Source: Eledone cirrhosa (Eukaryota). Taken from it: a DNA stretch of 64,000 bases. Where the stretch lies: positions 232,066,001 through 232,130,000 of the forward strand of contig OZ024740.1 in assembly GCA_964016885.1 (NCBI GenBank), written 5' to 3'. Each line of letters begins with the position of its first letter. The first letter of the stretch is position 1. The notes beneath the pieces were generated by a model. That model was not told the origin of the DNA, ran no database searches, and saw nothing but the letters and a program-made list of their open reading frames with translations. The translations under genes and the position numbers were made by a program. Below are positions 15,681-51,762 of the stretch, in pieces.

Positions 15681-16261
15681 GTATATATATATATATATAT
15701 ATATATATATATATATATATATATATATATATATATATATATATATATATATATATATATATTTAGAAACACACAGATACATGCGGACACACACATATAC
15801 ATGAATGCATCCGCACCCAACTGTGAGTTAAGGGTGCCAACTTCACCGATGTTGCTCAATGAATGACTGGGACAGACCAATTCAGTTGAACTAGACTGAA
15901 CCAGTATCAGAGTTAAAAATACATAATGAAGAGAGAAGAAACATTTAGATATAATTAGTAATAAAATGTATCATACCTAAACTGCTTCTAAATTCCTCGA
16001 CTACGTAGTTTCGTGGCATAAACAAAAACAATATATCATAAAGATATAGAGTCCTTGCGAGGTCTGCCGACTTATCAAGAGGATACCTCATTTTACTAGT
16101 CTCAAGAACGCGTCTACAATATATATATATATGCAAAGTTTTATTTAAAATTGTTGGGTTACAACGAGTAAATATTTTATAACTGATATAAAGCACTCAA
16201 CAAGTTTTGGAGTAGATATACGATATTAAACAAATGGAAACTATATTTATAAAACCATATT

Positions 16262-16327
16262 TATTTCATTATACATATTTCAGGGATACCATATTAGAAA
16301 TATGGCATGCCTTCTTCAGATAAAATA
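16262..16327 (-). ncRNA. Type I hammerhead ribozyme motif
   Basis: Reverse complement of 16446-16511. Confidence 0.8.
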
Positions 16328-16445
16328 CAATATATAAGCAGTTTTATAAATAAATTTGACGTACCAAACCAACTTTTTTAAATGGAAGTTGAACAATATT
16401 TATGGTACGTCAAATTTATTTATTTATAAAACTGCTTATATATTG

Positions 16446-16511
16446 TATTTTATCTGAAGAAGGCATGCCATATTTCTAATATGGTATCCCTGAAATATGT
16501 ATAATGAAATA
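16446..16511 (+). ncRNA. Type I hammerhead ribozyme motif
   Basis: tattttat-CTGAAGA-aggcatgccatatt/aatatggtatccct-GAAAT-ATGT-ATA^atgaaata; 8-bp stem I. Confidence 0.8.
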
Positions 16512-16663
16512 AATATGGTTTTATAAATATAGTTTCCATTTGTTTAATATCGTATATATATATATATATATATATATATATATATATATATGTATATATA
16601 TATATATATATATATATATATATATATATATATATATATATATATATATATATATATATATAA

Positions 16664-16806
16664 AGCAAAGACCGATACAGCTTGGCACCAGTGACGTCAC
16701 AACTCATTTTTACAGCTGAGTGAACTGGAACAACGGGAAATAAAGTGTCTTGCTCAACGCAAAGCCCGATCCGAGAATCGAACTCACAGCCTCACGATTG
16801 TAAGCA
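16664..16806 (-). mobile_element. SINE family B
   Basis: Reverse complement of cagctgtaaaaatgagttg.gacgtcactggtgccaagctgtatcgg seen at 25.7 kb. Confidence 0.85.
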
Positions 16807-17046
16807 AATAATTATAGTCTGCTATAGTATTGAGCATTATTTTCCCCTGTTTGCAAATCCAAACGTACGTACTTACACACACATGTGGATTGGTGGTTAC
16901 ATGTGGCTGTGAGCTCGATTCAGGACAGGACTGTGATTTGTGTCCTTAAGCAAGACACTCTATCACAAACAATCCAATTCTTGTTTAAACAAATAGCAAA
17001 TCGAGCCACTTTTTTTCCATCAAATTCTTTTTCCTATATATATATA

Positions 17047-17212
17047 TATAACGAAGGAAATGTGTTAAGCAACCAGATGGACCATAACGCACCAAAGTAC
17101 TCAATACTTAGGGTAGTAGAGAGGGTAATAGGAACAAGTAAGACCCCGACGGCTCCAGAATTAGCCGTCGAAACGGCTTGAGCTCTGCCGTCGGGGTCTT
17201 ACTTGTTCCTAT
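17047..17212. mobile_element. Palindromic GAAACGGC...GCCGTC family element
   Basis: Homologous to 21044-21240 and 28378-28570; flanked by (TA)n. Confidence 0.8.
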
Positions 17213-17265
17213 ATATATATATATATATATATATATATATATATATATATATATATATATATATA

Positions 17266-17833
17266 TATATAAAAGACGTAAAATAAGAAAATTTTAAGAA
17301 AATTTAAAAAATTAACTTACTAAAATTTTCACTCCAACTAATTAGTTTCTGCAATGGGATAAAGACAGTTACGTAATAAACTGTCGAGAATTCATTGCGT
17401 CATTAGGGAGTCTATTCTCAGCTAAGTCTCCAGGCAATGCGCGGACACTGGGGACTCATATAAAAATAATAATAATTCGGTAAATGGAACAGCTAGCGGG
17501 GACTGGATTCCATGTACTGAAAATCTCGCTGTCACTGGTCAAATGGCAGATTCTAAAGAATCAATCACGTGACACAGAGGCTAGTCGGTAGGAGTGGGAT
17601 GGTAAGATGACAGAAGCCTACTAACACACCAAAAAATTAGTACTGGTTTTGGCAGGTTTGCTCGACAAATAAGTAATTTGGAGATAAATATAGAGAATTT
17701 AGTATATCTACTAACATATGCGTACAGATGTACGCTAATGCCAGCAAATACACAGGTTATGTCATAGTACCTAGGTGGTTCAATGCAGGAGGATGCAGAA
17801 CAATAATATAAAAGACGTAAAATAAGAAAATTT
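17266..17833 (-). mobile_element. ~540-bp unit with terminal direct repeat and a decayed HHR (17331-17411)
   Basis: atataaaagacgtaaaataagaaaattt at both ends; minus strand actcc-CTAATGA-cgcaatg...cattgca-GAAAC-TAATTA-GTT-ggagt. Confidence 0.6.
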
Positions 17834-48720: not shown

Positions 48721-48954
48721 GTTAAATTAAAATGTAACGATTAAATAGTACAGCCCTTCATACACTGGGTGGCGTACAGGGCCAGATATATACAGATAAT
48801 TCACCAAATGCCCAAGTACGTTGATTAATATATGTGGGTCCCTTCTGCACACATTTCTCTCCCCATATATTATATATATATAATAACTAACAAATTTGTT
48901 ATTTGAATATGGCAAAGCCGGCCACTAATCGCTCGTATACATAAAACTGACTGG

Positions 48955-49054
48955 CCAATCTGCTGATATGCAAATCTGGCTGATCAGTAGATCTGCTAAT
49001 ATGCAGATCTGACTGATCACCCATTGTGCTAATATGCAAATCAGGCCGATCAGT
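48955..49054 (+). repeat. Three 33-bp tandem units containing octamer-like ATGCA(A/G)AT
   Basis: ATGCAAAT at 48968 and 49034, ATGCAGAT at 49001; unit tgct.atatgca.atc.g.c.gatca. Confidence 0.8.
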
Positions 49055-49100
49055 CTCTGTATATTTTAGAAAATATCATATATTTTCAGTAGCTCTGACA

Positions 49101-49183
49101 GTTGGAAGGTGAACAGTAAACTGCACTGATGAAGGGCAATCACCCAGAAACATTAGTGTCTGCAGTTCTGTTTACATGCCAAC
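49101..49183 (+). ncRNA. Type I hammerhead ribozyme with extended stem I
   Basis: gttgg-aag-gtgaacag-ta-aactgca-CTGATGA-agggcaatcaccca-GAAACA-ttag-TGTC^tgcagtt-ctgtttac-atg-ccaac. Confidence 0.85.
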
Positions 49184-50763
49184 ACAAGCCCAATAATGAG
49201 GGACTCATTCTATTGACATGGTTTAAAAGAGGCTTGTTTGCATAATTGCAAACGAATCGATTATTATTGATATTCGAAAAGCTCAGATTACATTTATATA
49301 TATATATATATATATATATATATATATATATATATATATATATATATTTATATATGTGTGTGCGTGTGTGTGTGTGTGTGTGTGTGTGTGTGTGTGTGTG
49401 TTTGTGTTTGTGTGTATGTGTGTGCGTGTGTGTGTGCGTGCGTGTGTGTATGTGTGTGTGCGCGCGCGTGTGTGGGTGCGTGTGTGTGCGTGTGTGTGTG
49501 TGTGTTTGTGTGTGTGTGTATGTGTGTGTATGTGTGTGTCTGTATGTGTGTGTGTGTGTCTTTGTGTGTGTGTGTGTGTGTCTGTGTACATATATAAAAT
49601 TTAACTTAACTTACTCAACCTTGAACATTGTTGAATACAGAAAGATCTAAATTGGAAGAGGAATCCAAACAGTTGCGGTACATTTTCGGCATTTTGGGGA
49701 TGAACTTGAAAAGTGTGGTGCATCGTGTTCTCTCTAGATAAAAGAAGTGAGTCAATGAAGGATCATGAGTTATCCCCATTGATGTAATAGGAGACATGTA
49801 GCAAATTGAAACTGGAGTCGTATGCTGGCTGTTCGCTTGCTCTTAATTTCTTTGTCATTTTGCCATGCCAATTTAATTTATATATACAAGTCTATACATA
49901 GCAAACTAAAATTAACTCCATTATATATGTATATATATATATATATATATATATGCATATATATATATATATATATATGTGTGTGTGTGCGCGCGTGTGT
50001 GTGTGTGTGTGTGTGTGTGCGTGCGTGTGTGTGTGCGTGTGAGAGAGTGTGTGTGTGTGAGTGTGTGTGAGTGTGTGTGTCTGTGTGCAAGTGTGTGTGT
50101 GAGTGCGTGTGTGTGTGTGTGTGTGTGAACGTGTGCGTGTGTGTGTGCGTGTGTGTGTGGGTGTGAGAGAGAGTGTGTGTGTGAGTGTGTGTGAGTGTGT
50201 GTGTCTGTGTGCAAGTGTGTGTGTGAGTGTGTGTGTGTGTGTGTGTGTGTGTGTGTGAGAGCGTGTGCGTGTGTGTGTGGGTGTGAGAGAGTGTGTGTGT
50301 GTGAGTGTGTGTGAGTGTGTATTGTGTGTGTGTGTCTGTGTGTGAGTGTGTGTGAGTGTGTGTGTGTGAGTGCGTGTGTGTGTGTAGTAACAAAGAAATC
50401 CCAAAGGAATGAAATAGAAATAGACTGCAAAAAAGAGTTCGCAGTCTAAAGAAAGGATTATATGATATAAAGGATAGCAACTGTTACTACTGACCTGAAT
50501 ATAAAACAGTTGGGATGTGAATATAACTAACAACAGTCTCAGACATGACAACCGAGAAAGAAATATAAGATTCCTGTGACCAGAATAAAGTACATACTGT
50601 ATATATATATATATATATATATATTAAAGTGTTAAACAATATTCAATGAGTATGTCAAAGAATGAGTTTTACAGTAGATTGGAAGCACTCTACGGTAAAA
50701 TAATTTTCCGGAGTTATTAATAATAAAATATAAATATTAATAAATTAGATGTTCTTTTGATCA

Positions 50764-50826
50764 ATTACATTTTATTATACATATTTCGGATGTACAACAG
50801 AACGTCCTCATCAGACAAAATATAAT
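50764..50826 (-). ncRNA. Type I hammerhead ribozyme motif
   Basis: Mirror of 50937-50999 with one stem II difference. Confidence 0.78.
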
Positions 50827-50936
50827 GATACATGACATACCCTGAGATGTTAAATGGTTAAGATTTAATATGGTTAAGATTAAATCTACCTTGATTAAAT
50901 CTTAACCATTTAACATCTCAGGGTATGTCATGTATC

Positions 50937-50999
50937 ATTATATTTTGTCTGATGAGGACGTACTGTTGTACATCCGAAATATGTATAATAAAATGTAAT
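50937..50999 (+). ncRNA. Type I hammerhead ribozyme motif
   Basis: attatattttgt-CTGATGA-ggacgtac/gtacatcc-GAAAT-ATGT-ATA^ataaaatgtaat; 12-bp stem I including GU pairs. Confidence 0.82.
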
Positions 51000-51762
51000 T
51001 GAACAAAAGAACATCTATTTTATTAATATTTATATTTTAATATTATATATATATATACATACTTATATATATATATACATACATATATATATATATACAT
51101 ACTTATACGTATATATATATATATATATATATATATATATATATACGTATAAGTATGTATATATACGTATAAGTAAGTATGTATGTATGTATCTATGTAT
51201 CTATGTATGTATATTTATATTTAAACTGGTGTGAGGTAGGTTTAACGTATTGCTAAAATAAATTACGAGTGGAGCTATGGTGTGTTGAAAATCCCGTAAG
51301 AACCTAGTTTTTATTCAAACTGTTTACAACTATAAAAGTTCTTGATCACTGCCGTTGAATTACAGTAGTGGAAGTAGAAATAAAATTAGTTTATGCTCTT
51401 CTTGAATGCAGTAAATGCGATTTCAGTAAATGAGGGAAGAATTGATGTTTGTTTGGCCGTCTTCTCCGCGGGGCGTAGCACTCCTGTCCCCTTGCCCTAG
51501 GCCCAAAACCCAATCACCCCCTCACCACCCCTCTTATACAACACCAGAACTCTTGACATCCCCTCTCTTTCCGATTATTTTTCTTTTTTCTTTCCCTCTT
51601 TTTCTCTCTAAATTTCCCTATTCTTTCTTTCCTTTTGTTTCTTTTTTTTATTTTTCTTACTAAATAAGGTTTGTTTTTTTTTTGCTTTTGAACAAATTCA
51701 TTAATAAAAAGTAAAAAAAAAGAAGAAAAGTTAGAACAAAGTACACAGATCGCTGAAGTAAC

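Follow-up and report, generated by a model that had tools for sequence, protein, structure and literature searches.

Penelope-like elements (PLEs) of the Hydra clade, which is defined by the protein signatures RWK, DKT, CxCx5C, CxxC and CxH, almost always use (TA)n as their target and carry a hammerhead ribozyme near the 3′ end, a tail at one end only and an inverted 5′-truncated copy; for one of them, Penelope-13_HM, hammerheads are recorded on both strands (PMC8557442). Pairs of minimal hammerheads on opposite strands, 100–700 bp apart and with a dimer-type stem III, have been read as truncated PLEs in Schistosoma (PMC4209133), and the palindromic architecture described below is already published as a by-product of PLE insertion. 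In vitro, the Poseidon element PAc cuts and extends both strands of an AT-rich target and initiates reverse transcription (RT) at two internal sites which bound the tail, with uncleaved RNA serving as the main template and hammerhead cleavage not being needed (PMC11167929). The related non-LTR (non-long terminal repeat) retrozymes are small, lack open reading frames (ORFs) and carry type I hammerheads (PMC7229834; bioRxiv 10.64898/2026.07.22.740005). Here we analyze a 64,000-nt stretch of the Eledone cirrhosa genome (assembly GCA_964016885.1, contig OZ024740.1, forward-strand positions 232,066,001 to 232,130,000; hereafter the window), which contains three palindromes, E1 to E3, with a hammerhead in every arm. 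We conclude that E1–E3 are, very probably, ORF-less inverted insertions of Hydra-type PLEs.

Architecture of the palindromes and their hammerheads

The three palindromes, first noticed in a sequence-only reading of the window, were re-measured at 16.2, 20.2 and 50.7 kb. They are 318–340 bp long, with arms of 144–154 bp and a one-sided tail of 85–95 nt, and all are embedded in (TA)n. E1 (16133..16556, minus strand) consists of two copies in head-to-head orientation, one bearing the tail and with its sense on the minus strand, the other inverted and tail-less, and the same architecture is found in E2 (20119..20530, minus) and E3 (50625..51045, minus). In each case, the tail is on the left and TA runs flank the element on both sides, masking any target-site duplication. 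The inverted 5′-truncated copy adjoining head to head, the tail at one end only and the type I hammerhead in the pseudo-LTR are all features of the insertion units of endonuclease-positive (EN+) Penelope-like elements; the published PLE tail, however, measures 30–40 bp versus the 85–95 nt found here. The arms of E1 (16217–16366 and 16403–16556) differ by a single 4-nt indel, those of E2 (20213–20356 and 20387–20530) are 100% identical, and those of E3 (50718–50869 and 50894–51045) are 97% identical, suggesting that E3 is likely the older insertion. The spacers, estimated earlier at 25–35 nt, are 36, 30 and 24 nt long, respectively; that of E2 is not unique sequence but mostly an additional 5′ part of the longer arm, and contigs of the E2 family running past 20356 continue with the reverse complement of what appears in the window as spacer. 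The centers of E1–E3 contain small hairpins and fillers, and ~65–75 nt separate the inner ends of the elements from the hammerhead core downstream.

Searching the two strands of the window for a generic type I hammerhead yielded eight matches, corresponding to the six arms of E1–E3 and a lone motif at 1179–1240 that was counted twice. The left-arm hammerheads are on the minus strand (E1, 16270..16319; E2, 20256..20310; E3, 50776..50814) and the right-arm ones, recovered by the scan and by alignment, on the plus strand (16454..16503, 20433..20487 and 50949..50987, respectively), with cleavage predicted at 16503, 20487 and 50987 on the plus strand and at 16270, 20256 and 50776 on the minus strand. 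Stem I comprises 8 bp in E1 and E2 and 12 bp in E3; stem III, of 2 bp, is capped by a loop that is self-complementary or wobble-paired. When the four distinct motifs were aligned, 62 of 64 cells were paired and all six pairs of stem II had changed on both sides, bearing out the earlier remark that this stem varies in sequence yet keeps pairing; none of 500 shuffles matched this covariation, which comes from four sequences with a structure derived from the same sequences. An unpaired C at position 4 of stem II is present in all four motifs. The recommended Rfam check did not recognize any of these hammerheads: there were no gathering-score matches in the window and no hammerhead among the 69 E-value matches in the 15.5–21.5 kb region. 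The hammerhead pattern was likewise absent from the viral contigs and the prokaryote genomes scanned, and nine metagenomic matches were dismissed as chance hits because they had neither the stem I context nor a TA target nor a PLE protein match. The lone motif, H4 (1170..1250, plus), is of the E1–E3 subtype and is followed by a high-copy SINE-like (short interspersed element-like) dispersed repeat at 1253–1450 that recurs in ~20 other places, with several copies forming nearby inverted pairs. Splice-donor-like sites of strong appearance are seen on the plus strand of E1 (16400–16410, ATG/GTACGT) and E3 (50918–50930, AGG/GTATGT), 30–50 nt upstream of the hammerhead, and a weak one in E2; they may mark a retained leader intron.

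The E2 family is abundant enough for its ends to be mapped. Alignment of positions 20116–20390 (275 nt) to contigs produced 3396 contigs in run X1 and 484 in run X4, numbers in which summed depth does not equal copy number; the stretch was found in 20 listed runs from 16 organisms, mostly at small shares, and no RNA run is among those listed. The outer ends are fixed at 20119 and ~20203–20213, with loose ends into TA at 20119 in 14 contigs and at 20203 in 58 contigs, among the 12 of 89 loose ends listed. All 15 listed joints (of 45 in all), in which the right side was read over 20–25 letters, link differing left points to 20366–20369, in agreement with a recurrent 5′ end near 20366, and the fillers at the joints are just T, AT or AGAT in the best 12 of 37 rows. 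The left breakpoints occupy at least 20 distinct positions, eight of which are within the tail. With fixed outer ends, one recurrent inner end and a second inner end that differs between copies, the palindrome is rebuilt at each insertion; it is not copied as a unit. A run-off end at the hammerhead cleavage site was also sought in these contigs and was not seen. The sequence-only reading had asked whether arm length is fixed, and had held that unique breakpoints at every locus would reduce the palindromes to ordinary truncated PLE insertions. Arm length turned out to be variable rather than fixed, as illustrated by E4 (31164..31283, plus), which is 80% identical to E1 and shares its tail and outer end, while having 14-bp arms and no hammerhead, so that even within one family the length is not constant. 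The breakpoints are largely unique, except that copies share their outer ends and one of the inner ends. A miniature inverted-repeat or foldback DNA transposon was rejected as a candidate, since the one-sided tail and the variable arms and junctions are at odds with fixed terminal inverted repeats copied whole.

A tail hairpin shared with Hydra-type elements

The motif aagcactc...ggagt pointed out in the sequence-only reading corresponds, on the sense strand of the tails, to a hairpin: an RCTC/GAGY stem with a 2-nt bulge on the 3′ side carries an upper stem that varies, and RCT comes next. In E1, this hairpin (hairpin 1) is at 16191..16213 (ACTC...GAGTGCT, with the 2-nt bulge), in E2 at 20175..20203 and in E3 at 50683..50714, all on the minus strand. 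The motif has six matches in the window versus 0.12 expected, for a pattern derived from these copies. As an outside set, we used 11 loci with Hydra-type ORFs from contigs labelled as prokaryotic, which, given the presence of microsatellites and PLEs, are inferred to be host DNA; these host-like loci (48 kb) contain 11 matches versus 1.18 expected (maximum of five in 200 shuffles), and none was found in 51 kb of bacterial control DNA. The first base pair shows a compensatory change, being A-U in seven copies from the window and G-C in eight outside copies. An upper stem of at least 3 bp over the 2-nt bulge is formed by 11 of 15 copies, some of which are related, compared to a shuffled mean of 0.75, and with bulges of 0, 1 or 3 nt none of the 15 forms such a stem.

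In full-length relatives from the outside set, the leader is arranged in the order hammerhead, hairpin 1, hairpin 2 (65–68 nt further on) and ATG. The twin hairpins, 65–68 nt apart, precede the ATG in loci L014 and L016 and are degenerate in L011, and the tail of L016 stops just before hairpin 2. The tail-less arm stops 3–9 nt upstream of hairpin 1 in all seven elements measured. The hairpin is also readable in published Hydra-clade consensus sequences: by eye, three of six have it in exact form and one as a variant, in the remaining two it is degenerate or missing, and the motif occurs twice before the ATG of Hydra-1_Ajap (PMC8557442 supplement). The word "hairpin" does not occur in the main text of PMC8557442, and no description of twin hairpins was found in the literature searched, a search that left aside Repbase notes, subscription papers and part of the PMC8557442 supplement. 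Locus L013 contains two miniature fold-backs that are unrelated to each other and carry the tail hairpin. More generally, L013 (5025–5305, 5700–6125 and 6143–7582) and L016 (2892–5454) contain Hydra-type inserts in host-like DNA, including miniature fold-backs, an inverted hammerhead pair and a complete ORF between 66-bp direct repeats of the tail.

Relatives of a different family in the same window connect this architecture to protein-coding elements. P1 (6120..8860, minus) is a 5′-truncated, stop-riddled Hydra-type PLE in (TA)n which combines an ORF remnant (7228–8364), an inverted 5′ copy (8366 to ~8860), a variant hammerhead core and a 3′ tail, and the P1 family is also represented by a miniature fold-back, M2 (2835..3245, plus), with arms of ~106 bp and a tail; P1 and M2 both display the architecture of E1–E3. 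Because M2 belongs to the P1 family, ORF-bearing families yield the same kind of miniatures. The 27 proteins related to P1 carry the RWK, DKT, CxCx5C, CxxC and CxH signature of the Hydra clade, whereas P1 itself retains CxC, CxxC and CxH and has lost the N-terminus and the third linker Cys. The label "Neptune-like" considered for P1 and its relatives was dropped upon comparison with the Hydra-clade definition. Pfam recognized neither the pieces of P1 nor seven full-length relatives, and none of 105 candidate PLE proteins in viral contigs was confirmed. The P1 hammerhead (6312–6440, minus) has the core CCGAUGA in both copies, its loop is the palindrome AAUU and its stem I contains a bulge, and the P1 tail contains a long, degenerate version of the hairpin. 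The ORF of P1 is the sole PLE ORF in the window; none of a matching family is found at E1–E3, and no open frame resembling a PLE N-terminus is present in their leaders.

The same tail hairpin further occurs in family F, a group of fold-backs with short arms and no hammerhead core (28379..28570, plus; also 17047–17212 and 21043–21239), in which five of six inner ends coincide to within 1 nt. The members are GC-rich inserts in TA runs, with a variant near 12120–12200, and their inner ends lie ~55 nt from the tail-less end, which equals the distance expected of a hammerhead cut in E1–E3. Another insert adjoining a TA run (22977–23119) includes a short fold-back at 23063–23119 as well as a copy of the hairpin motif at 23059.

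Assignment, proposed mechanism and alternatives

The earlier suggestion of ORF-less PLE-derived or retrozyme-like units can be narrowed: the PLE origin is supported, and a tail hairpin in common with Hydra elements, insertion into (TA)n and the geometry point to the Hydra clade as the source of E1–E3. Compared to the Schistosoma pairs, termini, target and junctions are resolved in E1–E3, and stem III is of 2 bp with a tetraloop (PMC4209133). E1–E3 nevertheless depart from described Hydra-clade elements in having no ORF, a longer stem II and the conserved unpaired C at its position 4 (PMC8557442), and comparison by eye with the hammerhead of Hydra-1_oBim gives no match.

We consider it probable that the palindromes arise by a mechanism in which hairpins set the RT starts, two head-to-head cDNAs are made in (TA)n and the products are dead ends. 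By analogy with published PLE biochemistry, the endonuclease would nick (TA)n on both strands, and each of the resulting ends would prime cDNA synthesis at internal sites of the RNA. As the end positions suggest, one cDNA would start just 5′ of hairpin 2, copying hairpin 1 as the tail, and the other just 5′ of hairpin 1, leaving its arm without a tail, so that each start would be set by the hairpin lying immediately downstream on the RNA. With priming in a promoter-proximal leader, the cDNAs would end by run-off at the RNA 5′ end, ~65–75 nt upstream of the core of the hammerhead, or at some earlier point; such run-off at a promoter-proximal end would account for the similar arm sizes in unrelated families. 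In D. virilis, an internal promoter drives Penelope transcription from a start a short distance upstream of the intron (PMC2377424). The 3′ ends of the two cDNAs would then be joined head to head through microhomology or short fillers. Because each cDNA starts upstream of a hairpin, every round loses one: the product would carry no hairpin 2, and its tail-less arm neither hairpin, which would rule out self-regeneration. Inserts such as E1–E3, which have no hairpin 2, are therefore likely dead ends. Any read-through RNA would form a duplex of ~150 bp or more, predicted to bury the ribozyme and to be edited by adenosine deaminases acting on RNA (ADAR).

The process resembles twin priming of L1, in which two cDNAs are primed from both target strands, with 5′ inversion and joining at microhomology; here, by contrast, the second cDNA starts at a constant position and the overlap of the cDNAs makes a palindrome. 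The broader proposition, that a twin hairpin in the 5′ leader sets both RT starts throughout Hydra-clade PLEs and that in this animal the palindromes supply edited double-stranded RNA in abundance, with editing at the cleavage site, has in our estimate about even chances. The ends of the palindromes amount to a natural mapping experiment that points to a specific conserved RNA element, and the origin of PLE tails and inverted copies becomes testable by mutation of a hairpin of 25–30 nt. If true, a single hairpin code would underlie the tail, the inverted 5′ copy, the requirement of tandem copies for continued mobility and the mass of short run-off palindromes; the hairpin would serve as a marker by which repeats with no ORF can be assigned to the Hydra clade; and, for animal genomes rich in microsatellites, one mechanical origin of perfect double-stranded RNA would have been named.

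Several observations weigh against this interpretation. No autonomous partner for E1–E3 was found, so the link to the Hydra clade rests on non-coding features, and the stem III pair U15.2-A16.2 of E1–E3 contrasts with C-G in all 26 Hydra hammerhead rows (PMC8557442). Hairpin 2 was never seen for the E1, E2 and E3 families; single hairpins fold weakly (z −0.6 to −2.6), and their putative role is one deduced from position alone. In addition, hairpin 1 is where L016 begins, a position that the model covers just as an extra stop. Within the E2 family, where the evidence consists of short contigs throughout and 30 of the 45 joints are outside the listing, the recurrent end at 20366 is favored by detection, as joints inside the arm would look like strand changes. 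One loose-end consensus at 20356 runs on with other letters, so that some copies may reach further upstream, and a cluster of joints at 20212–20216 (8 of 22 contigs) may reflect ATAT microhomology.

The same chemistry could also act on a different template, namely, a short non-autonomous SINE-like master RNA retaining the promoter, the hammerhead and both hairpins. We regard this as unlikely, although the great abundance of the E2 family (3396 contigs over 275 nt in run X1) with its recurrent 5′ end, the coincident inner ends of family F (5 of 6 within 1 nt), the internal promoter of D. virilis Penelope (PMC2377424) and the missing ORF to match E1–E3 in the window would all fit it. P1 and M2, however, show that an ORF-bearing family makes such miniatures, run-off on a normal mRNA explains the same fixed end, and neither the window nor the 11 outside loci contain a short ORF-less element with two hairpins. 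Self-priming of the second strand by fold-back of a single cDNA (PMC3846280), or later asymmetric trimming of a perfect palindrome, would account for the small hairpins and fillers at the centers of E1–E3, for the variants shared by family F arms of one locus and for the perfect-palindrome center that is well supported in run X1. Yet 8 of the 20 breakpoints are in the tail, where the first cDNA offers no template for the other arm, which favors two cDNAs (a later deletion could still produce them), and the tail-less end is fixed beside hairpin 1 in 7 of 7 elements; this route is accordingly judged quite improbable.

Still further from the evidence are the retrozymes, whose tandem monomers would be cut by the hammerhead, circularized and reinserted. 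What E1–E3 have in common with them is a type I hammerhead with a 2-bp stem III and a self-complementary loop, and a size within the retrozyme range (PMC7229834); however, retrozymes are head-to-tail tandems expressed as circles, as opposed to head-to-head units with variable junctions. No same-strand tandem copies, hence no tandem monomers or pairs of same-strand hammerheads, were present at any locus examined, the E2 contigs display neither a depth step nor a listed joint at the cleavage site, and the ribozyme is predicted to be buried in duplex. The retrozyme-like half of the earlier suggestion is therefore given up as very improbable. As for fold-back artefacts of assembly or library preparation, the complete identity of the E2 arms and the fact that no aligned contig spans the whole E2 stretch would be expected of them, but the arms of E1 differ, as do those of E3, the ends are tied to a biological motif, head-to-head joints occur in both runs X1 and X4, and the same structure is found in independent contigs of another source (L013), making an artefact hardly credible. 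We thus retain two hairpin-directed cDNAs as the preferred explanation.

Predicted folding, possible editing and remaining features

The sequence-only reading envisaged a self-cleaving motif that competes with the hairpin of the palindrome. This is not borne out by the predicted folds: on both strands the hammerhead sits in the arm transcribed second, and in the full elements, with folding energies of −237 to −256 kcal/mol, the predicted pairing of stems I and II drops to 0.000. For single arms, the predicted pairing of stem I is 0.71–0.90 in E2 and E3 and 0.03 in E1. Thus, the ribozyme is predicted to be silenced within read-through RNA.

The proposal that the duplex is a substrate of ADAR receives tentative support from variants in the E2 family. 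Among the 29 listed variant sites, eight are at least 20-fold more frequent in X4 than in X1, and all eight are T>C or A>G changes within the arm, with U or A as the 5′ neighbor. Seven of them cluster at 20248–20257, at the left-arm hammerhead, including the A of the cleavage site. Editing is known for palindromic repeats and for Penelope of a lizard (PMC5625713), and the cluster fits A-to-I editing; we treat it as a lead, with X4 being a separate sample whose RNA nature is unrecorded.

Elsewhere in the window, a perfect inverted duplication (12976–13053 and 13286–13363) surrounds a TA/CA microsatellite and is possibly an assembly artefact or a fold-back. Two remnants of LINE-type (long interspersed element-type) reverse transcriptases are located on the minus strand at 57415–59766 and 60578–62111, the first of which is matched by the Pfam domains RVT_1 and zf-RVT.

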